Shown: positions 1 through 60,274, numbered from the stretch's first letter. The stretch: 64,000 nucleotides of DNA from Candidatus Doudnabacteria bacterium RIFCSPHIGHO2_01_FULL_46_14 (GCA_001779925.1 MFEK01000014.1:152168-216167), one strand, 5' to 3'. Notes: a model not told the origin generated them from the letters alone. Numbers and translations are program-made.

Positions 1-2777
1 CGAGTGTTTCGACCAAGCTCAACATAAAAAACGCCAAACGGCAGGTGCAAAGTTGGGGCGTAGGTTTTGATTGGTCGCGCGAGATAAATACCACTGATCC
101 GGAATATTACAAATGGACACAGTGGATTTTCCTGCAGTTCTACAAAGCGGGACTCGCGTACGAAGCCGCGGGGCTTATCAACTGGTGTCCGCAGGACAAA
201 ACAGGACTCGCGAACGAAGAGGTGATAGACGGCAAATGCGAACGTTGCGGAACAGTGGTTGAGAAAAAAGAACTGCGCCAATGGTATCTGAAAATCACAG
301 CGTACGCCGAAAAGCTTCTTGAGGGATTGAAAAATCTTCCCGAATGGCCGGATCAGGTCAAGCTCCAGCAGGAAAACTGGATCGGGAAAAGCGAGGGCGC
401 GGAAATTGATTTTCCATTATTTGTTATTCCGGCCGCCGAGCCGGAATCCAGTCCGCCTCAGGCGGATGGATCCCGAAGACCCAAGTCCGGGATGACAAAC
501 TTTTTAATTCTCCATGGGTACACGGGCTCGGCAGGCAGGAATTTTATACCCTGGCTGAAAACAGAGCTTGAAAAACAGGGTTATAAAGTGCAAACACCTG
601 AGCTGCCGAATTCTGATGACCCAAAAGAATCTGAGCAGGTTGATTATATTTTAAAAAAATGCAGCATTGATGAGAATACGATTATAGTTGGTCATAGCCT
701 TGGCTGTATAGTCGCCATGAAAGCCCTGCAAAAATACGGAAAATCCGTTAAGGGGTTAATATTGCTGGATGCGGCCGTAGATCCTGCGTTTTCTGGCGCT
801 ACGCCTCGACCGTTCCACAAGAATTTTTCCTGGAATTTCGACTACGAAAGGTTAAAAAAATACGCACCTGCGCGGACCATACTTTCAGATTTAAAAGAGG
901 GCGAGCCGCGGGTGGGATATCTGAAAACTTTATCAAAGAAACTGGATGCGCAATTGATAACTGGGCGATCAACGGAGAATCACTTCACAGCTGAGCGAGA
1001 ACCATTGGTGTTAGAAATTCTCACCCCTCCCTCAATCCCTCCCCATCAAGGGGAGGGAAGAGGGGAAGGGATAAAAATTTTTACCACCAGGGTTGATACT
1101 TTACCAGGTGCGACCTTTATTGTAATTGCCCCGGAGCACCCTCTTATACAGAATTTTGCCTCAAGGATTTCGAATTTCAGCGAGGTGAGTAAATATATCG
1201 AGGAGGCAAAAAAGAAAACTGATATTGTCCGCTCCGCCAGGGACAAAGAAAAAACCGGGGTGGAATTGAAAGGTGTTAAAGTGGTTAATCCGGTTAATGG
1301 TGAAAAATTGCCGATTTGGGTTGCGGACTATGCTTTGATGGATTTTGGCACAGGCGCGTTATTTGGCGATGCGCACGACGAACGCGATCAAGCATTCGCC
1401 AAGAAATATAAAATTCCTTTAAAAGTAACTCTGAAGCCTGCAAACGGACGCGATGATTCAAAAATTCGGAATTTAGAAGAAGTCTTTATCGATGATGGTG
1501 TTTTGTATAATTCCGGAGAGTTCGATGGTCTATCTTCTGAAGAGGCTCGAAAAGTAATAACTAAATGGTTGGTAGATAAAAAATCAGGACGAGCGACTGT
1601 TTCTTACAAACTCCGCGATTGGGTGTTTTCCAGGCAGAGATATTGGGGCGAGCCGATTCCTATCATTCACTGCCCTGCGTGCGGAATAGTACCAGTACCG
1701 GAAAAAGATTTGCCGGTTCGGCTTCCGAACGTGAAAAAATATGAACCAACCGGAACAGGGGAATCGCCGCTCGCCGCGATAGACAAATGGGTGAAAGTGA
1801 AATGTCCAAACTGCAAAGGCCCAGCCAAACGCGAAACCAATACCATGCCGCAGTGGGCCGGCAGCTCTTGGTATTATTTGCGATACACTGACCCGAAAAA
1901 CAAGAACGAATTGGCAGATGATGAATTGATGAAACATTGGCTGCCGGTTGATGTGTATTTTGGCGGCACGGAACATACGACGCTTCACCTTTTGTATTCG
2001 CGTTTTTGGAATTTGTTTTTGCATGATCAGGGAATCGTGCCGGTAAGCGAGCCGTATACAAAGCGCGTGCCGCACGGGATTATTCTCGCCGAAGACGGGG
2101 AGAAGATGAGCAAAAGCCGGGGCAATGTAGTGAACCCTGATGAAATTGTGAACATATACGGCGCAGACACTTTGCGGATGTATGAGCTATTTTTGGGACC
2201 GCATGGGCAGACTGTTAGTTGGCATAGTCGCGGGATAATCGGTGTAAGGAGATTTTTGGAGAAAGTTTGGCGTCTCGCAAGCATAAAAGAATCATCAACA
2301 TCGCGGATTCAGAGTGATAAATTAGAGAGCATTATTCACAAGACTATTAAAAAAGTTACCGACGATATCGAAAATTTTCGTTTTAACACTGCGGTATCCG
2401 CACTGATGATTTTGGCGAATGAAATGGAAGGAAAACAAGTAAGCAAAAATGACATAACAAGACTGTTGAAATTATTAGCTCCATTTGCCCCCCATATGGC
2501 CGAAGATCTGTGGCGCGAATTGGGAAACAAAGTTTCAATTCATCTCGCACAGTGGCCGGAACATGATCCTGCTTTAGCTAAAGATGAATTTGTAAATGTT
2601 GCAGTGCAGATCAATGGCCGGGTTCGGGATACAGTGCGGATTGCAGTCGCGGCCAGCGAAGCCGAAGCAAGAAATTTTGCAGAAGCAAGCTCCCAAGTTC
2701 AAAAGCATCTGGTCGGTAAGCAAGTTGGGAAATTTATTTATATTCCCGGAAAAATTATTAATTTCGTCGTGAAATAA
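1..2777 (+). CDS. leuS: Leucyl-tRNA synthetase, 5'-truncated by the window edge; carries an inserted alpha/beta-hydrolase domain before the CP1 editing domain
   Basis: The frame is open from nt 3, so the N-terminus lies upstream of the window. Class-I LeuRS motifs are present: GFDWSRE, WCPQD, the CP1 entry motif FTTRxDTL, a KMSKS-like MSKSRGN, and a conserved C-terminal region. An extra stretch of about 220 aa lies between EGAEIDF and IFTTR. Confidence 0.9.
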   Translation, partial: SVSTKLNIKNAKRQVQSWGVGFDWSREINTTDPEYYKWTQWIFLQFYKAGLAYEAAGLINWCPQDKTGLANEEVIDGKCERCGTVVEKKELRQWYLKITAYAEKLLEGLKNLPEWPDQVKLQQENWIGKSEGAEIDFPLFVIPAAEPESSPPQADGSRRPKSGMTNFLILHGYTGSAGRNFIPWLKTELEKQGYKVQTPELPNSDDPKESEQVDYILKKCSIDENTIIVGHSLGCIVAMKALQKYGKSVKGLILLDAAVDPAFSGATPRPFHKNFSWNFDYERLKKYAPARTILSDLKEGEPRVGYLKTLSKKLDAQLITGRSTENHFTAEREPLVLEILTPPSIPPHQGEGRGEGIKIFTTRVDTLPGATFIVIAPEHPLIQNFASRISNFSEVSKYIEEAKKKTDIVRSARDKEKTGVELKGVKVVNPVNGEKLPIWVADYALMDFGTGALFGDAHDERDQAFAKKYKIPLKVTLKPANGRDDSKIRNLEEVFIDDGVLYNSGEFDGLSSEEARKVITKWLVDKKSGRATVSYKLRDWVFSRQRYWGEPIPIIHCPACGIVPVPEKDLPVRLPNVKKYEPTGTGESPLAAIDKWVKVKCPNCKGPAKRETNTMPQWAGSSWYYLRYTDPKNKNELADDELMKHWLPVDVYFGGTEHTTLHLLYSRFWNLFLHDQGIVPVSEPYTKRVPHGIILAEDGEKMSKSRGNVVNPDEIVNIYGADTLRMYELFLGPHGQTVSWHSRGIIGVRRFLEKVWRLASIKESSTSRIQSDKLESIIHKTIKKVTDDIENFRFNTAVSALMILANEMEGKQVSKNDITRLLKLLAPFAPHMAEDLWRELGNKVSIHLAQWPEHDPALAKDEFVNVAVQINGRVRDTVRIAVAASEAEARNFAEASSQVQKHLVGKQVGKFIYIPGKIINFVVK

Positions 2778-6892: not shown

Positions 6893-7405
6893 ATGCGCAA
6901 TTTCGATCTTCAAGTTTTCGAGTATATTAATGGCCTTGCCCTGAAATATCCGCTCTGGGACAAGGTCGTCATTTACGCCAACGAGTATGGCCTTTATGTT
7001 TTCGCTGGGATTGTCGCGATACTGTTTTTCGTCAATCGCCGAGCTTTCTGGGGTGCTGCGATTTCCTCAATTCTTGCCCGCGGAATCATTACAGAGATCA
7101 TTCGCTATGCGTATAAACGGCCGAGGCCATTTGTCAACGATCAGTTGGAAAACGTCCGACAGCTTGTTGTAAAAAGTGTGATCAACGATTCATTTCCTTC
7201 GGGGCACGCCGCGTTCTATTTCGCAATTGCTTTCGCCGTGTATTTCCAGAACCGCAAGGCCGGTGCTGTTTTGATTATTCTGGCGGTGATTCTGGGAACG
7301 ACCCGAATCTACACGGGAATTCATTATCCATCAGATATTCTGGGGGGCGCTCTGATTGGTTTTGCTTCAGCGTGGGTTGCGGGTAAGCTGCTTTTTCGCC
7401 GGTAA
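6893..7405 (+). CDS. PAP2-family phosphatase, likely undecaprenyl/lipid-phosphate phosphatase
   Basis: PAP2 motifs KRPRPF, PSGH and SRxxxxxHxxxD are present in a membrane protein. Confidence 0.75.
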   Translation: MRNFDLQVFEYINGLALKYPLWDKVVIYANEYGLYVFAGIVAILFFVNRRAFWGAAISSILARGIITEIIRYAYKRPRPFVNDQLENVRQLVVKSVINDSFPSGHAAFYFAIAFAVYFQNRKAGAVLIILAVILGTTRIYTGIHYPSDILGGALIGFASAWVAGKLLFRR

Positions 7406-7965: not shown

Positions 7966-10425
7966 ATGTACGAGATGAATGATTATCTAAAACAATCCGG
8001 ATATCTTGGCGCGGCTCATTTGGAAAAAATATTTCCACGGCAGATCACTGCTGTCATGACAACCGTGTGCTTGGTAGCGGTTCTGGCTTGCGCTGTCATT
8101 GCGGTTATTTTGGGCAGCAAGTCTTTGTTCACAGTTGCGCTACTGCTGCTAGTTTTATTTTATTTTCTGGCAGCTTATTTCTTGTTTACAAATTTTTTGC
8201 AGGAAGATCGCAGTCTTAGCGCGAATGAAATCGCAGAGGCGCGTGCGGCAAAAAAGCTTGGCATGATTTTAAATTTCTCAGCTGTTCAGGTTTTGGAGAC
8301 AAGCGTGCAAGGGAATACTCTAAAGCTCTATGATTTTTTTAATCATACATTCAAGCTTCCGGAATTTGTCTGGATTTTACGCCGGCTGAACATTCTGCCT
8401 CAGGATTTTCAAAAAAGAGTTTTGATGAGCTGTGATACAAACTCAACCATGCTGATGACAGACGTGCTCGAAACTGCCTGGCAAATAGCCTTGTCGGCAA
8501 ACCATCTGAATATCAGCGAGTACGAGATTCTGGCCGCAGTTTACGAGCTTGATAAGAATTTTCAAAAAGTTCTTTTTAGTTTTGAGGCAGAACAGAAAGA
8601 TTTTTTCGAAGTGATATATTGGAGGCGCAGAAAAGACTTAGAGACGAAAATCAGGCGTCTCGATATCAAAGGCATTGGCAAAGATTGGTCAGGCGGATAT
8701 ACGGTTCAGCTCGACGAAACTGCGACAGATATAACAGCGGCTCTGGAAACCAGGCGCGTACCTTCGCATTTATACGGACAAAGCGCCAATCTTGAGCTTT
8801 TACAGCGAATGCTGGTGCGCGGAGCGGGATCCAGCAATGTCGTGCTGGTGGGACCGCCCGGCGTGGGTAAACATCATTTGATCGACGCTCTAGCGGAGCT
8901 CATCAATTCCGGGCAGACGTTCCCGTCCCTTCGTTATATGAGGCTGCTGCAAATCGATTCTTCCTCTCTTATTGCCGGCACGCTTTCGCCAAACCAGATT
9001 CTCTCTAAAATTGGAGCATTATTTATGGAAGCGTACGCCGCCGGAAACGTGATATTGGTGGTCAATGATATTGACGCGCTTCTTGATTCGGGACGGGACG
9101 CCGTGGGGCGCGTTAACGCCACGGAAGCGTTGCTGCGCTTTTTCCAGTCCAGCTTGCATATAATTGGTCTTACGACGCCTAGCGGATACCAAAATACAAT
9201 TGGTCGTAATCCCATGTTGCAAAAACTTATTGCCAAGCTGGAGCTTGATGAGCCGACGAACGCTGAGACCCTGATGATTTTGCAGGACCACGCGGTCCAA
9301 TTGGAAAGGGATTCAGGCTTATTTTTCACGCACCAGGCTTTGCAACAAATCGTGTTGCTTGCAGGCAAGCTGATCCAAAACCTGCCCAATCCGGAAAAGT
9401 CTCTTGAAGTGCTTTCCGAAACTGCGGTTTACGTTGCGGTTGATATTTCGTCACGGATCGTTTTGCCGGAGCATGTGCAGCATGTGGTTGCTGAGAAAAC
9501 CAAGGTTCCCGTGGAAAAAATTTCCATGGGAGAAAAAGATAAACTTCTAAACCTTGAGGAGATTTTGCATCGCAGGATAATTGGCCAGGATGAGGCTGTT
9601 AGGGAGCTCGCCGATTCTCTGCGGCGTGCACGGTCAGGCATTCGTTCCGAGAAAAAACCAATCGGTAGTTTTCTTTTCTTGGGGCCGACCGGCGTTGGCA
9701 AAACCGAAACTACTAAGGCGCTCGCGGAAACATATTTTGGCGACTATTCAAAGATCCTACGCTTTGATATGTCAGAATTTCAGGAAATTCATGCACTGAA
9801 CCGGCTCATTGGCGATGCTGATACCGGAACAGGCGGTCTGCTCACCGAGCAGGTCGTCGCAAATCCGTTTTCGTTGGTACTTCTTGATGAGCTGGAAAAA
9901 GCTCATCCCAAGATTCTCGATTTATTTTTGCAGGTTCTCGATGACGGCATCCTTACGGATTTTTTGGGCAGGAAAATCAGTTTTATTAACACCATGATAA
10001 TTGCGACCTCGAACGCCGGCTCGGAGATGATCCGCAATATAGTGAAAGAAGGGAACGACCCTCAGGCTTTCCGTGAACAGATTTTAGGCTCCTTGCAGAG
10101 CCAAAATATTTTCCGTCCGGAATTTCTAAATCGTTTTGACGGAGTGGTAATTTTCAAACCGCTCTCCCCGGAAGATCTCCTTCGTGTGGCTGGATTGCTT
10201 CTTGCCGAACTAAACAGCAGGCTGGCGGAAAAAGAGATTCAGGTCGAGATAACAGACGAGCTTTGTCAGACTGTAGTTTCCGGCGGTTATCAGCCCGAAT
10301 TTGGCGCGCGGCCCCTGCGGCGCTACATTCAGGAGCATTTGGAAAATTTTGTCGCCCGCGGCCTCATTGACGGCTCAATCAAAAAAGGCGATACGATAAG
10401 AATTGATCCGGGTCAATTGTCTTGA
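7966..10425 (+). CDS. Clp/Hsp100-family AAA+ ATPase (ClpB/ClpC-like) with an N-terminal transmembrane anchor and a degenerate first nucleotide-binding domain
   Basis: Two AAA modules are present. D2 is canonical: RIIGQDEAV, GPTGVGKTE, LLDELEKAH, a sensor region and ATSNAG. D1 has GPPGVGKH in place of GKT and VVNDID in place of the hhhhDE Walker-B motif. The first roughly 75 aa are hydrophobic (TM). There is no long M-domain coiled coil and no IGF loop. Confidence 0.8.
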   Translation: MYEMNDYLKQSGYLGAAHLEKIFPRQITAVMTTVCLVAVLACAVIAVILGSKSLFTVALLLLVLFYFLAAYFLFTNFLQEDRSLSANEIAEARAAKKLGMILNFSAVQVLETSVQGNTLKLYDFFNHTFKLPEFVWILRRLNILPQDFQKRVLMSCDTNSTMLMTDVLETAWQIALSANHLNISEYEILAAVYELDKNFQKVLFSFEAEQKDFFEVIYWRRRKDLETKIRRLDIKGIGKDWSGGYTVQLDETATDITAALETRRVPSHLYGQSANLELLQRMLVRGAGSSNVVLVGPPGVGKHHLIDALAELINSGQTFPSLRYMRLLQIDSSSLIAGTLSPNQILSKIGALFMEAYAAGNVILVVNDIDALLDSGRDAVGRVNATEALLRFFQSSLHIIGLTTPSGYQNTIGRNPMLQKLIAKLELDEPTNAETLMILQDHAVQLERDSGLFFTHQALQQIVLLAGKLIQNLPNPEKSLEVLSETAVYVAVDISSRIVLPEHVQHVVAEKTKVPVEKISMGEKDKLLNLEEILHRRIIGQDEAVRELADSLRRARSGIRSEKKPIGSFLFLGPTGVGKTETTKALAETYFGDYSKILRFDMSEFQEIHALNRLIGDADTGTGGLLTEQVVANPFSLVLLDELEKAHPKILDLFLQVLDDGILTDFLGRKISFINTMIIATSNAGSEMIRNIVKEGNDPQAFREQILGSLQSQNIFRPEFLNRFDGVVIFKPLSPEDLLRVAGLLLAELNSRLAEKEIQVEITDELCQTVVSGGYQPEFGARPLRRYIQEHLENFVARGLIDGSIKKGDTIRIDPGQLS

Positions 10426-10519: not shown

Positions 10520-10606
10520 GCCCGGGTGGCGGAACTGGCAGACGCAATGGACTCAAAATCCATCGGTCGCAAGATCATGAGGGTTCGACTCCCTCCTCGG
10601 GCACCA
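10520..10606 (+). tRNA. tRNA-Leu (anticodon CAA), type II with a long variable arm; CCA is encoded
   Basis: A 7-bp acceptor stem (one G-U pair), D-arm GGCGGAACTGGCAGACGC, anticodon loop CTCAAAA, a long variable arm, T-arm GAGGGTTCGACTCCCTC and 3' ACCA. The ORF track's 10487 ORF translates across this tRNA. Confidence 0.9.
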
Positions 10607-10672: not shown

Positions 10673-11578
10673 ATGGTATTTAATCCGCAAAATTTTAATT
10701 TTTCCAATATGCAAAACCGTTCCAAAAACCCAATAGGGTCGCTAGTTAGCACACTCATTTTTTTCTTTATTATTGCCACAGTGATTTCAGAAACTGGATT
10801 CGTCAGCGGCACGTCCGTGTTTGTACTGGTGATCGTTTTGCTGGTTTTAGTCTTCTTGCTTGGGGGACTGCGCATTGTTGACCAGTACGAGAGGGGAGTA
10901 GTACTAACCTTGGGAAAATATACAGGCACCAGGTCGCCGGGACTGACCTGGATTTTCATGGGTATTCAGCAGATGCAAAAGGTTGACCTGCGTATCACTA
11001 CAGTGGATATTCCCCAGCAGGAGGTTATCACTAAAGACAATGTGCCGGTCGGCATTAACGCAGTGGTTTATTTCCAGGTTGAATCTGCCGAACATGCCAT
11101 TCTCAATATCAAAGATTACACGCTGGCTGTTTCACAGTACGCGCAGGCTGCGCTTCGCGACGTTATCGGCGGCATCGAGCTTGATCCGCTTCTCTCTGAG
11201 CGCGAGCATATTTCTGAGGCCATCAAAAAAATCGTGGACGAAGCCACCAAGGTTTGGGGCATTAATATCACTGACATAAAGATCCAGGATATAGAGCTTC
11301 CGGCAGACATGAAACGCATCATGGCCAAACAGGCCGAGTCCGAGCGGGAACGCCGGGCTACGATAATCCGCGCGGAAGGCGAATTTGCCGCTGCTGAAAG
11401 GCTCGCCCAGGCGGCCGAGCGGCTAAGCCAGGTTCCAGGCGGTCTGTCCATGCGAACCTTGCAGACCATAGAGCGAATCAATCCTGATCCGTCCAAGACC
11501 GTGATCTTTGCCCTGCCCATAGAGTTTATGGAAGGCGTAAAATCGCTTACCGAGTACATGAGAAACAAGGTAAAGTAG
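10673..11578 (+). CDS. SPFH/Band-7 (stomatin/prohibitin-like) membrane protein
   Basis: An N-terminal TM segment precedes an SPFH domain (RIVDQYERGVVLTLGKY...) and a coiled-coil C-terminus. The start was moved to the first ATG downstream of the tRNA. Confidence 0.8.
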   Translation: MVFNPQNFNFSNMQNRSKNPIGSLVSTLIFFFIIATVISETGFVSGTSVFVLVIVLLVLVFLLGGLRIVDQYERGVVLTLGKYTGTRSPGLTWIFMGIQQMQKVDLRITTVDIPQQEVITKDNVPVGINAVVYFQVESAEHAILNIKDYTLAVSQYAQAALRDVIGGIELDPLLSEREHISEAIKKIVDEATKVWGINITDIKIQDIELPADMKRIMAKQAESERERRATIIRAEGEFAAAERLAQAAERLSQVPGGLSMRTLQTIERINPDPSKTVIFALPIEFMEGVKSLTEYMRNKVK

Positions 11579-17736: not shown

Positions 17737-18009
17737 ATTGAGATTGTGTTTATACCCTGTTTATATCTTGTGGAAAAGCTGTGAATTTGTGCTTGACGCC
17801 TCTCCTTGCTGCTGTTAATATTGCCATCAGAGATTAACTAATAGCGCAGAATGAAAGAGTTTCGCCACATTGTAGTCGCTACCCGCAAGCCGAGCATTCT
17901 CGGTCTTGTTGAGTTTCGGCTGCATTATCGCGGAACCTAAAATCTTAGCTAAAAGCTAATCCCGCAGCAAAAACCAAGGTTCCGCCAAAAGCGGAATTTT
18001 GGTTAATAT

Positions 18010-18081
18010 GACGAGATAGTTCAATTGGTAGAACGGCGGCTTCCAAGCCGTAGGTTGTAGGTTCGATGCCTGCTCTCGTCG
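18010..18081 (+). tRNA. tRNA with a non-canonical anticodon loop: probably Trp(CCA), alternatively Gly(UCC)
   Basis: A perfect 7-bp acceptor stem GACGAGA/TCTCGTC, a tRNA-Trp-like D-arm TAGTTCAATTGGTAGAAC and a T-arm GTAGGTTCGATGCCTGC. The anticodon region GGCGGCTTCCAAGCCGT folds only with a 6- or 8/9-nt loop. Confidence 0.6.
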
Positions 18082-18199
18082 TTCAAGCAGTACATCTCAC
18101 CCCTAAAGGAGGACAAATTTAGTTTCGAGAAAGAAGTATTCGCACTGCCCAGCAACATCGGGTTCACGTTAACATTCGAAAGTAGGATTAGCAGGGCTT

Positions 18200-51825: not shown

Positions 51826-53028
51826 ATGATAGAAAACGAAACAAAACCGTCGGAAAACCCAATAAAAAAACCCATTAATCCAAGACAACTCACGGCCTTG
51901 ATCGGTATAGTTGCGGGTTTTGCAGGTGGGGTTATCGGCTCGCTCTATTTGGCCCCGTGGTACCAGCAGAATATTCTTCACCAGATGCCAGGCCAGTCTG
52001 TCGAGCGCAAGCAGGTAGTAATTGACGAGCAATCAGCGATTATCAGCGCGGTAGAAAAGGTGAACCCGAGCGTGGTTTCGATAGTTATCAGCAAGGATTT
52101 GCCCGAGTTTGAACAGTTCGGCTCTCCGTTCGGATTTTTTCGGGCGCCATCGGGCGAAATTCAGGAACAACAGATCGGCGCTGGCAGTGGATTTATTATT
52201 ACTGCAGACGGGATGATCGTGACCAACAAGCATGTGGTTTCCGATACAGAAGCAGAATACACAGTTGTAACCAACGATAACAAAAAATATCCAGCCCGCG
52301 TGGTCGCGACCGATCCCGTTAACGATGTGGCAGTAGTCAAGATTGAGGTAAAAAATTTGCCGGTTGTGACCTTTGGCGATTCAGACAAACTCAAACTCGG
52401 GCAAGGAGTGGTGGCCATAGGAAATGCGCTCGGCGAGTTTCAGAATACCGTTACCTCAGGCGTGGTTTCGGGAATCGGTCGCAATATTACAGCGGGCGGC
52501 GGCGCGCAGACAGAGAATCTCTTGGAGGTCATCCAGACTGACGCGGCCATCAATCCAGGCAATTCCGGAGGGCCGCTTGCAGATATGGATGGCAATGTCA
52601 TTGGGGTGAACTCGGCGGTCAGCATGCAAGGGCAGCTTATTGGTTTTGCGATTCCCATAAACCAAGTGAAAAAAGCTGTGGATGATATCAAGCAGTTTGG
52701 AAAAGTGCGCCGGGCGTTTCTTGGCGTACGGTATGTCATTGTGACTGAATCTGTGGCTCGCGAAGAAAATCTGTCGGTAGATTATGGAGCGCTTATCCTT
52801 CGCGGGCAAAACCCACGCCAGCCCGGGGTCGTGCCGGACAGCCCGGCGGACAAATCAGGCCTCAGGGAAAGAGATATCATTTTAGAGGTTGATGCTCAGA
52901 AAATTACCGCAGACAATACGCTTTCCGAGATTATGAGGGACTACAATCCGGGAGACAGAGCGACTCTGAAAATCAGAAGAGAAGCCAGGGAAATGTCTGT
53001 GGCAGTAATTTTGGGAGATGCTGAGTAG
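51826..53028 (+). CDS. htrA: HtrA/DegP-family serine protease with a PDZ domain
   Basis: Catalytic context TNKHVV, D..., GNSGGPL; a C-terminal PDZ domain. Confidence 0.9.
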   Translation: MIENETKPSENPIKKPINPRQLTALIGIVAGFAGGVIGSLYLAPWYQQNILHQMPGQSVERKQVVIDEQSAIISAVEKVNPSVVSIVISKDLPEFEQFGSPFGFFRAPSGEIQEQQIGAGSGFIITADGMIVTNKHVVSDTEAEYTVVTNDNKKYPARVVATDPVNDVAVVKIEVKNLPVVTFGDSDKLKLGQGVVAIGNALGEFQNTVTSGVVSGIGRNITAGGGAQTENLLEVIQTDAAINPGNSGGPLADMDGNVIGVNSAVSMQGQLIGFAIPINQVKKAVDDIKQFGKVRRAFLGVRYVIVTESVAREENLSVDYGALILRGQNPRQPGVVPDSPADKSGLRERDIILEVDAQKITADNTLSEIMRDYNPGDRATLKIRREAREMSVAVILGDAE

Positions 53029-58534: not shown

Positions 58535-60274
58535 ATGACTGTATTAGTTTTATTTTTGGTAATTTTTTGTTTGATGTGGATCGCGCGGCTTAGCGGCCGG
58601 TTAAGCGATTTGGAAAAGGAAAGGTCTCCCGCGCAGACAAAACAAGGAGCATCCGCGTCTATAGCACCTTCTATCCCACAGGCGCCGGTCACGCAGCCGA
58701 TGTCTAAGCAGGAAGCCGCTGCTCCAAAGCCGCAAACAGAAAAGCGTGCGGAGGAGGAGATTGCCACCAATTGGCTGACAAGGATCGGGGTAGTGGCCTT
58801 GCTCTTTGGCGTGGGCTTTTTTTTGAAATACGCGATTGACCAAGGCTGGATCAATGAGCTTATGCGCGTCATGATTGGTGTTTCAGTAGGTGTGCTCCTC
58901 ATCATCCTCGGCGAGATATGGAAATCAAAATATCGAGATTACGCGCTCAGCCTTTCCGGCGGCGGAATTGGCATTTTATATTTCAGCGTTACCGCGGCTT
59001 ACCAGTTTTACGGGCTTGTTTCACATGGCGCAGCTTTCGGGCTTGCGATTCTGATCACCCTGGTGGCTGCGTTTTTAGCGTATCGTTATCAGAGCCTGCC
59101 GCTCGCCCTTCTTTCTACTATTGGCAGCTACGCCTCGCCGCTCTTGCTTTATTCTGGCAGAGACCAGCAGATCCAACTTTTTTTTTACATGACGATTCTC
59201 AATATGGGAATACTTACTGTTCTGGTAAAAAAATACTGGTTCGAGCTTTTGTACGTGGCGTTTATCGGCACGGGTTTGAATTTTTTGGTTTGGGTTTTGA
59301 GATTTTCCAATTCCGATAACACCCTGGAAAGCGTAGTATTTTTGCTAACCACTCTCGCCCTATTCTGGGTGATCACTATGCTTCTCCTGCGGCTCCATGA
59401 AACCGAACAACCCCTGCAAAAAAGTGCGGACGACAAGCAGGGTATGTTTATGGTGTTGAGCGCGATTTATTTTGTGATTGCTGTGTTTACCCTGCTTTAT
59501 GGCAATTTCCATCATCGCCTAGCTCTTGTTTCTTTTTTGGAAGCCGCAGTAGCGCTCGTTACCTATCTTTTTGCAGCTAGACAAAACTGGCCTGTGACGC
59601 GTTATACCGCGGCCTTTAGTGCATTTGTGTTGTTCGTAATGTTTAATTTTTGGCAGTTTGACGGAGCAGGAACAGATGTTTCAATTTTCGTATTGGCAAT
59701 AGCAGGAATCTTTGCCGGGGCTTTTCTCGGCAAACCAGAGCTGCGCGTGGCAGGCGTATCAACGCTCTTTTTCGGCATGATCAAGACTTTTGCCAATTCA
59801 TACGAAATGCAATCGTATACCTTTCTTTTAAATGAAAAGTTTTCGCTTTCTGCCTTATATATTGTTGGCGGTTGGATTGTTTCCCGATTCTGGAACCGGG
59901 ATGGTCAAAAAATCAAAGCAATTTCGGCTTTGGCTTTATGGTTTGCAGTAACCTGGGAAATCGTGGCGTATTTCCAGCAATTCCCTGGTTCAGGTAATAG
60001 TTTAAACCTGTCTATCAGTATATGGTGGATTACCTACGCGGTTGTTGTATTGATATATGGGGTGATGATGCGCGACGCGTTTTTCCGCAAACTTGCAATA
60101 ATCTTATTCGGGCTGAGTATAGTGAAAGTTTTTGTTTATGATGTGCAAAGTCTTGACACGGGATACCGCATCGTTTCATTTATAACGCTCGGTGTGATTT
60201 TATTGTCCGTATCATTTGCCTATCACAAAAATAAAGAAAAAATCACGTTTTTTTTGGAAGGTAAAAGCAAATGA
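58535..60274 (+). CDS. Large polytopic membrane protein (DUF2339-like)
   Basis: At least 12 TM helices and an N-terminal Pro/Ala/Gln-rich region; the start directly abuts the tktN stop. Confidence 0.6.
   Translation: MTVLVLFLVIFCLMWIARLSGRLSDLEKERSPAQTKQGASASIAPSIPQAPVTQPMSKQEAAAPKPQTEKRAEEEIATNWLTRIGVVALLFGVGFFLKYAIDQGWINELMRVMIGVSVGVLLIILGEIWKSKYRDYALSLSGGGIGILYFSVTAAYQFYGLVSHGAAFGLAILITLVAAFLAYRYQSLPLALLSTIGSYASPLLLYSGRDQQIQLFFYMTILNMGILTVLVKKYWFELLYVAFIGTGLNFLVWVLRFSNSDNTLESVVFLLTTLALFWVITMLLLRLHETEQPLQKSADDKQGMFMVLSAIYFVIAVFTLLYGNFHHRLALVSFLEAAVALVTYLFAARQNWPVTRYTAAFSAFVLFVMFNFWQFDGAGTDVSIFVLAIAGIFAGAFLGKPELRVAGVSTLFFGMIKTFANSYEMQSYTFLLNEKFSLSALYIVGGWIVSRFWNRDGQKIKAISALALWFAVTWEIVAYFQQFPGSGNSLNLSISIWWITYAVVVLIYGVMMRDAFFRKLAIILFGLSIVKVFVYDVQSLDTGYRIVSFITLGVILLSVSFAYHKNKEKITFFLEGKSK

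Follow-up and report, generated by a model that had tools for sequence, protein, structure and literature searches.

Clp/Hsp100 proteins are textbook polypeptide-threading motors, and the locus described here raises the question of what work such a protein does when it is tethered to the membrane and lacks the pore-loop residues associated with threading. The locus lies in a 64,000-nucleotide (64-kb) stretch of DNA from Candidatus Doudnabacteria bacterium RIFCSPHIGHO2_01_FULL_46_14 (GCA_001779925.1, MFEK01000014.1:152168-216167), called the window below, and the gene in question encodes the ATPase OGE78242.1 (Table 1). An annotation made earlier from the sequence alone, referred to here as the original prediction, had described the product as a membrane-anchored ClpB/ClpC-like ATPase with an inactivated first AAA+ module (D1) and a fully canonical second one (D2), and had proposed a membrane-proximal unfoldase or disaggregase. 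The protein proved to have a partner, a small membrane protein encoded directly upstream, and the two genes make up a conserved module, widespread in Patescibacteria. We lean towards a D2-driven, membrane-bound remodelling machine that would work with this partner in a non-classical manner, as neither a ClpP protease component nor a DnaK-type disaggregase.

Family membership of the window ATPase

The predicted open reading frame (ORF) was confirmed. Public annotations of its family are automatic and read 'hypothetical' or a generic 'Clp ATP-binding subunit'; the window protein itself was deposited from the Candidatus Doudnabacteria metagenome-assembled genome (MAG) as 'hypothetical protein A2751_03745' and is labelled 'Clp R domain-containing protein' in UniRef. 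It falls within the class-I Clp/Hsp100 superfamily, with tandem AAA+ modules, an AAA_2-type D2, a ClpB_D2-small domain, a match to Clp_N and a ClpA-like colinearity without an M-domain, and its parts follow one another in the order short N-terminal peptide, two-helix transmembrane (TM) hairpin, diverged Clp_N, D1, D2 and D2-small. The closest solved relatives are Thermus thermophilus ClpB (1qvr, E = 3.7e-112) and ClpC. An AlphaFold2 (AF2) model built from a 32-sequence family alignment (mean predicted local distance difference test score, pLDDT, 84.7) has the overall fold of substrate-bound ClpC/ClpB hexamer subunits, and ClpC and ClpB were its best matches in Foldseek (E of about 1e-47 to 1e-42 for ClpC).

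Within the superfamily, the protein belongs to none of the familiar types. Scores against the NCBIfam models of ClpB (TIGR03346, 438.1 bits) and ClpA (TIGR02639, 412.5 bits) were below the respective cutoffs of 1232.1 and 993.15 bits; the ClpA model aligned in one colinear stretch (ATPase residues 154-814 to ClpA 72-733), and ClpB and ClpC aligned in two separate stretches (HMMER). The features that define ClpB, ClpA, ClpC and FtsH (model cutoffs, M-domain, pore loops, D1 site, ClpP loop, protease) set it apart from all four; in the case of FtsH, Pfam gave no Peptidase_M41 match for the ATPase, and the window contains no HExGH.

A word-indexed search returned about 45 full-length relatives of 45-56% identity from MAGs of Doudnabacteria, Saccharibacteria and other Patescibacteria, together with more distant TM-bearing clades. 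Scanning of genome contigs with generic D2 peptides recovered ordinary ClpB/ClpC for the most part, without members of the closest family, and these loci were reused as negative controls (67 ordinary ClpB/ClpC loci). Conservation was measured in the family alignment of 32 members, Walker motifs were also compared in a 93-sequence alignment, and motifs and spacings were surveyed in an 85-locus sample of TM-type and ordinary Clp loci together. The TM-type ATPase is additional to the ordinary Clp ATPases and does not replace them: a canonical ClpB (KFRG, GYIG) adjoins the module in locus L070, divergently oriented ClpB-type genes, assigned by domain matches alone (Pfam Clp_N, AAA_2 and D2-small), adjoin it in L085-L088, and a Saccharibacteria MAG (L082) carries a canonical ClpC. 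Searches of the literature returned no account of a bacterial Hsp100 that is pore-loop-less or anchored in the membrane, which is absence of evidence only.

The N-terminal anchor and the region preceding D1

Hydrophobic segments were located by Kyte-Doolittle analysis with 19-residue windows and a threshold of 1.6. Two peaks were obtained, at residues 30-48 (2.87) and 54-72 (2.54), windows above the threshold being confined to residues 22-79, and the AF2 model placed helices at residues 25-49 and 52-79 with a pLDDT of about 90. Exactly two hydrophobic peaks were present in 30 of the 32 family members, so that the two N-terminal hydrophobic helices noticed earlier were confirmed. The sequence of the hairpin is only 27% identical among members, and hydrophobicity kept at such an identity is typical of membrane anchors. 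The peptide preceding it is better conserved (mean pairwise identity 40%), with a nearly invariant Ser11. Since two TM helices return the chain to the side from which it started, this peptide and the ATPase body share one side of the membrane, presumably the cytoplasmic one, given the requirement of the ATPase for ATP.

Between the hairpin and D1 lies a diverged Clp_N domain. It forms an eight-helix domain in the AF2 model, and the family profile matched canonical Clp_N in hhalign with a probability of 85% (E = 5.8e-6, 108 columns). Clp_N is detected by Pfam in the sister-clade ATPases of L085 and L086, and it was not among the best 25 Pfam families listed for the clade of the window. Mean pairwise identity of the domain is 31%.

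A different N-terminal elaboration within the same ATPase family was seen in L007, whose TM-type ATPase (ORF 95-2911) carries two DnaJ-type zinc-finger repeats (CPQCHGSG ... CDNCQGMG) in its N-terminal 70 or so amino acids, before the TM segments.

ATPase sites of D1 and D2

D1 gave generic and weak Pfam matches (AAA_16, 3e-10; AAA_lid_9, 0.002) and 74-77 bits against the D1 of ClpB/ClpC in HMMER. In place of the canonical Walker A motif GxPGVGKT/S, it carries a histidine (His303) that is invariant in 32 of 32 members, preceded at position 302 by arginine in 29 and by lysine in the other three, the window protein being among those that keep lysine. In Walker B the aspartate position is occupied by asparagine, and the catalytic glutamate position by aspartate, as in the window protein, in 23/32 members and by asparagine in 9/32, giving the family consensus Gx4G(R/K)H for Walker A and hhhhN(D/N) for Walker B. 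The noncanonical Walker motifs of the original prediction (GKH and ND) were thus reproduced, both in HMMER alignments to ClpB/ClpC and in the 93-sequence alignment; two further losses in D1 had been overlooked, namely the replacement of the pore-loop motif KYRG by LSPN and of the RRF arginine fingers by KLI. Mean pairwise identity of D1 is nevertheless 57-58%, against 31% for the N-domain. This high conservation, together with substitutions that are fixed throughout the family, indicates that D1 is a maintained pseudo-ATPase, and not a decaying domain.

The mean identity of D2 within the family is 71%. The module scored 310 bits against ClpB D2, with Pfam AAA_2 spanning residues 564-725, and its Walker A, Walker B (LLDELE), sensor-1 (ATSN), the arginine of RPEFLNRFD and sensor-2 are intact and invariant in all 32 members. 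The description of D2 as fully canonical therefore holds for every ATPase motif, and fails for pore loop-1, which is short and has no tyrosine: the region RLIGDADTGTGGLLTE is four residues shorter than that of ClpB (GAPPGYVG), acidic, rich in glycine and devoid of aromatic residues.

Loss of pore-loop tyrosines and of docking elements

The absence of both KYRG and GYVG is shared by all TM-type relatives in the sample (the window, L001-L013, L015, L017, L070 and L085-L088). Both motifs are kept in the ordinary Clp loci of the same sample, the D1 motif deviating in L028, L032, L054 and L075. To our knowledge, all characterised Clp/Hsp100 members rely on the pore-loop tyrosines, which grip the polypeptide, thread it through the pore and are required for translocation, and all of them act with ClpP or Hsp70. 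With the tyrosines gone from both rings, threading cannot be assumed for this family.

The elements by which Hsp100 proteins dock to ClpP or DnaK are missing as well. The two Walker A motifs of the window ATPase are 277 amino acids apart; in the 85-locus sample this spacing was 270-282 in TM-type proteins, about 315-340 in ClpC, about 400 (to 403) in ClpB and 276-289 in a few M-domain-less proteins. With the ClpA-colinear alignment and an AF2 model in which no long coiled coil was found, it agrees with the earlier statement that a ClpB M-domain is absent, and it extends that statement to the short M-domain of the ClpC type (277 against about 337 amino acids). The SIGF/SIGL-bearing insertion of ClpA-type sequences is likewise absent, the region aligning like that of ClpB without a loop insertion, as expected from the reported lack of an IGF/IGL ClpP-docking tripeptide. 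In the 64-kb window, searches for a ClpP serine or histidine motif, for a further AAA+ Walker A and for GYVG gave no match. Without gripping tyrosines, a ClpP loop or a DnaK-docking M-domain, the protein would be neither a ClpP partner nor a ClpB-type disaggregase. The original prediction thus stands in so far as it described an Hsp100-type ATPase that is specialised, tethered to the membrane and dead in D1, distinct from standard ClpB (no M-domain) and from ClpP partners (no loop); its assignment as an unfoldase or disaggregase is not supported in that form, given the absence of pore-loop tyrosines here and in all membrane-anchored relatives examined.

A small membrane protein is the conserved partner of the ATPase

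The ATPase had been regarded as a stand-alone oddity. Its character as a membrane Hsp100-type protein is upheld, but it does not stand alone: the ORF directly upstream encodes a small, all-helical membrane protein (OGE78241.1), the partner below, and the two genes form a conserved module, widely distributed among Patescibacteria and perhaps typical of the lineage. In the window the module has its full form, the partner being followed by an ATPase with TM segments, without M-domain and without pore-loop tyrosines.

The partner has an N-terminal W-W/F-Y helix, an invariant Arg86, a long hydrophobic C-terminal helix region and a conserved loop, PRLFxxWHRDITSYGRGFDLKR, which reads PWHRDITSYGRGFDLKR in the window. 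No match was found among Pfam, NCBIfam and PADLOC models. Its AF2 model is all-helical (pLDDT 90.6), and a fold search of the PDB gave nothing significant (best E = 3.7). With clustering at 50% identity, the partner family comprised 1,653 clusters in an exhaustive HMMER search, 516 of which had E <= 1e-10. Almost all of the proteins have lengths of 105-160 amino acids, and those named by source in the word-indexed search are called hypothetical.

Linkage to the ATPase was examined with hidden Markov models (HMMs) of the partner, a four-sequence profile that was later broadened to 16 sequences. In L001-L004, an ORF of about 125 amino acids without Pfam match lies directly upstream of the ATPase and overlaps or abuts its start (in L003 it is present though skipped by the gene caller); these orthologs are 43-50% identical and share the invariant core PRxFxxWHxDIxxYGRGFDL. 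The HMM identified the ORF at the same place in L005, L006, L008, L009, L010, L012 and L013, and a diverged subtype (FPxWWY...PMYG..D..GRxIS) occupies it in L011, L017 and L070. After exclusion of L007, whose contig begins at the ATPase gene, the partner was directly upstream in 19 of 19 testable loci (the window and 18 others), and the HMM had no match in the 67 ordinary ClpB/ClpC loci. Conversely, when partner homologs were taken as the starting point, a TM-type ATPase followed 5-40 bp downstream in four of four loci (L085-L088); these ATPases, of 886-898 amino acids, have two TM segments, a 280-amino-acid Walker spacing, a Walker B of the form hhhhxN and a short D2 loop, and they lack KYRG.

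Two independent partner-ATPase fusions were also found. In L015, a partner domain (E = 3.6e-14) takes the place of the TM hairpin of the ATPase, and in P0054, residues 6-98 match the 16-sequence HMM (E = 3.8e-7), P0054 being outside the training set; against the four-sequence profile its hhalign probability had been only 14%. P0267 (414 amino acids), in which a partner domain seems to be read through into an ATPase-type N-terminus, lies on a fragment and was not counted as a fusion.

A similar gene pair was found in Southlakia epibionticum, a cultivated Saccharibacterium, in the Tn-seq data of Wang et al. (Cell 2023, PMC10633639, Tables S1/S2), where the 384-bp hypothetical gene SEML1_0701 overlaps the start of the 2583-bp SEML1_0700, annotated as 'AAA family ATPase'. 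SEML1_0700 has AAA_2 at 544-706, D2-small at 713-792, a weak D1 match at 276-381 and no Clp_N match, and the pair is divergent beside MurT/GatD, an arrangement also seen in L009. Both genes received identical HMM calls over three passages (NE, NE, GD), a mild growth defect, with normalised reads falling in the order 4124, 2517 and 1638 for SEML1_0700 and 258, 157 and 51 for SEML1_0701; canonical ClpC (SEML1_0512) and ClpP (SEML1_0493) were NE throughout (PMC10633639).

Genomic context of the module

The neighbours of the gene pair in the window are housekeeping genes. Four long contigs share the upstream order leucyl-tRNA synthetase (LeuRS), Sua5, a major facilitator superfamily (MFS) transporter, serine hydroxymethyltransferase (SHMT), BacA and/or PAP2, partner and ATPase, and BacA and/or PAP2 keeps this position in five of five loci of the clade to which the window belongs. 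The best NCBIfam models for the window PAP2 protein were SepP/undecaprenyl-diphosphate phosphatase, below their cutoffs. Directly downstream of the module, a Glycos_transf_4 (GT4) enzyme was found in eight loci, followed in L085, L087 and L088 by a YkuD L,D-transpeptidase. Other envelope-related neighbours occur in one locus each: Bac_transf in L006, LytR-CpsA-Psr in L008, MurT in L009 and MraZ/MraW in L005. The repeated proximity of cell-envelope and undecaprenyl-phosphate-linked enzymes, in about six of about ten independent contexts, is suggestive.

In the GT4 enzymes (MraY/WecA-type) of L085, L087 and L088, an unusual domain combination was observed, the enzyme being fused to QueH (epoxyqueuosine reductase) in proteins of 512-544 amino acids (9131-10765 in L085).

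In all five loci where clpB is the divergent neighbour (L070 and L085-L088), the intergenic region between clpB and the partner contains a controlling inverted repeat of chaperone expression (CIRCE), the HrcA operator TTAGCACTC-N9-GAGTGCTAA, with 0-1 mismatch. No CIRCE or CtsR site was found upstream of the module in the clade of the window, and the link to heat shock may concern only clpB.

Proposed mode of action and alternatives

In the remodelling machine that we favour, the ATPase would form a membrane-tethered hexamer. D1, comparable in this respect to the inert rings NSF-D2 and PEX1/6-D1, would most likely act as a scaffold for assembly, and D2, with its complete ATPase site, would be the only motor. 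The ATPase would contact its partner within the membrane, a possibility raised by the L015 fusion, in which partner helices substitute for the TM hairpin. Hydrolysis in D2 would then most likely perform conformational work at the cytoplasmic face, either directly on the partner and on clients embedded in the membrane or by way of them, with no processive threading. From the gene neighbourhood, these clients may be tied to cell-envelope biogenesis. A more specific form of this proposal, an undescribed two-component and non-threading membrane AAA+ machine whose D2 acts via hairpin and partner in undecaprenyl phosphate (Und-P)-dependent envelope biogenesis, is put forward tentatively; such a module might, for example, regulate or recycle envelope-synthesis complexes, with a logic nearer to FtsEX or Torsin-LAP1 than to ClpB. 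That the pair is a distinct two-component machine has a realistic chance.

Several points weigh against this proposal. It is drawn from sequence, a structural model and gene context. The loss of pore-loop aromatics argues against threading without excluding it, as other loop residues could touch the substrate, for example the leucine, tyrosine or phenylalanine just before LTE in the short D2 loop, and the Clp_N domain, which is retained, would be fit to bind substrates or adaptors as it does in true unfoldases. In the window pair the two genes do not overlap and are separated by 113 nt, and their co-transcription is hypothetical. The envelope link is suggestive, from neighbourhoods that are in part inherited synteny within clades, and the non-envelope neighbours, FtsH (L015), TatC (L012) and CIRCE-regulated clpB (L070, L085-L088), would fit a proteostasis role equally well. 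The S. epibionticum genes, an apparent orthologous pair with a mild growth defect, were matched by architecture alone, and insertions in SEML1_0701 could be polar on SEML1_0700.

The main alternative, close to the original prediction, is an Msp1/FtsH-like role, in which a membrane-proximal unfoldase, extractase or disaggregase would thread misfolded or mislocalised membrane proteins through non-aromatic pore loops, pulling its substrates from the bilayer or from membrane-associated aggregates. We regard this as possible, if rather doubtful. An intact D2 site, a retained Clp_N, an anchor resembling those of FtsH and Msp1, a fold like that of substrate-bound ClpC/ClpB subunits and the neighbouring genes (FtsH adjoining the module in L015, CIRCE-controlled clpB as divergent neighbour in five loci) all speak for it. 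Against these stand the family-wide lack of pore-loop-1 aromatics, with a D2 loop that is four residues short, acidic and glycine-rich, the lack of a protease-partner loop or of an M-domain for hand-over to Hsp70, and the absence of CIRCE upstream of the module in the clade of the window.

That the protein is a degenerating Clp paralog, a largely non-enzymatic scaffold or pseudo-enzyme whose motifs are relics, would account for the dead D1 and the loss of pore loops in both rings. It seems very improbable, as the D2 motifs are invariant over 32 members at 71% identity, the D1 substitutions are themselves fixed (His303 in 32/32), this large family has kept the partner beside it, and the putative S. 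epibionticum ortholog has a fitness phenotype. Still less credible is a ClpA/ClpC-type ATPase that delivers membrane substrates to ClpP: the ClpA-colinear arrangement without M-domain agrees with it, but the IGF/IGL loop and pore-loop tyrosines are missing, the scores are far below the ClpA/ClpC cutoffs, the 64-kb window is without a ClpP signature, and the public names that suggest it are automatic. A mobile or anti-phage defence component, suggested by PADLOC matches to DolB and PDC-M37B at residues of about 502-690, merits almost no credence, since these matches span the generic AAA_2 core alone, the partner has no PADLOC match, and the housekeeping synteny (LeuRS, Sua5, MFS, SHMT, BacA/PAP2) is kept in relatives down to 45% identity.

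Comparison with known systems

The remodelling machine proposed here would combine features that are found separately elsewhere. ClpA has the same order of Clp_N, D1, D2 and D2-small, no M-domain and a Walker A spacing of about 277-281 amino acids, but is soluble, with two active rings, KYRG/GYVG loops and an IGL loop, which the TM-anchored window ATPase lacks. ClpB/Hsp104 gave the best overall sequence match (1qvr), has a closely similar D2 and D2-small and likewise no ClpP loop; of its DnaK-docking coiled-coil M-domain of about 120 amino acids, active D1 and D2 and tyrosine loops, however, only the D2 activity site is kept here. ClpC, which works with the adaptors MecA/McsB, gave the best Foldseek matches and has a Clp_N domain, but is soluble and has a short M-domain (spacing of about 337 amino acids), a ClpP loop and tyrosine pore loops.

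As in FtsH, which has two TM helices per subunit, and in Msp1/ATAD1, an AAA+ ring, presumably a hexamer, would be held at the cytoplasmic side of the membrane by the N-terminal anchor. FtsH and Msp1/ATAD1 thread membrane proteins and contain one classical-clade module, whose pore loop is aromatic; FtsH also carries an M41 protease. The window ATPase, by contrast, has a pair of Hsp100-type modules, lacks a protease and has pore loops devoid of aromatic residues. Torsins with LAP1/LULL1 are also membrane AAA+ proteins without aromatic pore loops that depend on a dedicated membrane-spanning partner, an analogy of logic alone: they are eukaryotic, single-module proteins of the endoplasmic reticulum lumen, unrelated at family level, and the completion of the active site by the partner is a Torsin feature for which nothing here gives an indication. 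One ring is kept as a non-hydrolysing assembly or regulatory scaffold in NSF-D2, PEX1/PEX6-D1 and p97-D1, and the Clp/Hsp100 architecture has been repurposed from unfolding in the Clp-like proteins SMAX1/D53; all of these belong to other lineages, and none has a TM hairpin anchor or a small membrane partner.

The family thus keeps the Hsp100 scaffold and one live ring, drops the gripping loops and gains an anchor and an obligate-looking membrane partner. Either outcome would be informative, Hsp100-type ATP-driven work without threading or threading by a different pore chemistry. Patescibacteria have minimal genomes, in which retained paralogs are likely to matter, and a poorly understood envelope biology, and the module is conserved and unannotated among them. 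The apparent ortholog pair with a mild fitness phenotype makes the question directly testable in the tractable S. epibionticum.

Features of the locus

Table 1. Coordinates of the ATPase, its partner and associated features (window positions unless a locus is named; aa, amino acids).
Feature	Location	Strand	Evidence or remark
PAP2-family phosphatase, neighbour	6893..7405	+	Pfam PAP2 5e-23; not shown as part of the machine
Partner, small all-helical membrane protein, 133 aa	7452..7853	+	OGE78241.1; no Pfam/NCBIfam/PADLOC model
Membrane-anchored class-I Clp/Hsp100-like ATPase, 819 aa	7966..10425	+	OGE78242.1
Conserved N-terminal peptide, aa 1-26	7966..8043	+	Family alignment; motif YLxQSGY..A..LEK
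Two-helix TM hairpin, aa 27-78	8044..8199	+	Kyte-Doolittle and AF2
Diverged Clp_N (Clp repeat) domain, aa 82-232	8209..8661	+	hhalign, AF2
D1 AAA+ module, aa 269-520	8770..9525	+	Weak Pfam AAA_16, AAA_lid_9
D1 Walker A GPPGVGKHH, aa 296-304	8851..8877	+	Opposite GEPGVGKTA of ClpB/ClpC
D1 pore-loop position LSPN, aa 340-343	8983..8994	+	K-Y/F-R-G in ClpB/ClpC/ClpA
D1 Walker B VILVVND, aa 362-368	9049..9069	+	Opposite VILFIDE of ClpB/ClpC
D2 AAA+ module, aa 521-730	9526..10155	+	Pfam AAA_2 6.4e-47
D2 Walker A GPTGVGKT, aa 573-580	9682..9705	+	Alignment
D2 pore loop-1 GDADTGTGG, aa 616-624	9811..9837	+	HMMER to 1qvr/ClpC, multiple alignment
D2 Walker B LVLLDE, aa 637-642	9874..9891	+	D641 and E642 invariant
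ClpB_D2-small, aa 733-813	10162..10404	+	Pfam 3.9e-23; sensor-2 GARPLRR, aa 780-786
CIRCE sites, clpB side	L070 ~6769; L085 ~5911; L086 ~5862; L087 ~5824; L088 ~5854		

Downstream of the ATPase, after a tRNA-Leu gene (10520-10606), the window carries an SPFH/Band 7 gene (10673-11578, + strand) whose product is HflK/HflC-like, below NCBIfam cutoffs, and recalls the FtsH-HflKC pairing. It was rejected as a conserved partner, as none was found near the module in any other locus examined.

The LeuRS of the window (45-2777, + strand, 910 amino acids) has an Abhydrolase_1 match (4e-11) at residues of about 153-278, ahead of the editing domain; the LeuRS proteins of L003 and L004 are 785-787 amino acids long, with no hydrolase match. 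Insertion or fusion of a hydrolase domain may account for this, or else misplaced ORF boundaries. At 18009-18082 (+ strand), Rfam gave a tRNA gene with 58.6 bits that ARAGORN reported as of undetermined type, with a two-base 'anticodon (cc)'. Inspection by eye showed an anticodon stem GCGGC/GCCGT and a 6-nt loop, TTCCAA, against the usual 7 nt. This could be a gene resembling tRNA-Trp(CCA) or tRNA-Gly(UCC) whose loop has been shortened, or it could reflect an assembly error. Further along are an HtrA-type Trypsin_2-PDZ protease (51826-53028, + strand), the sole obvious quality-control protease in the 64-kb window, and a DUF2339 membrane protein of 579 amino acids (58535-60274, + strand).

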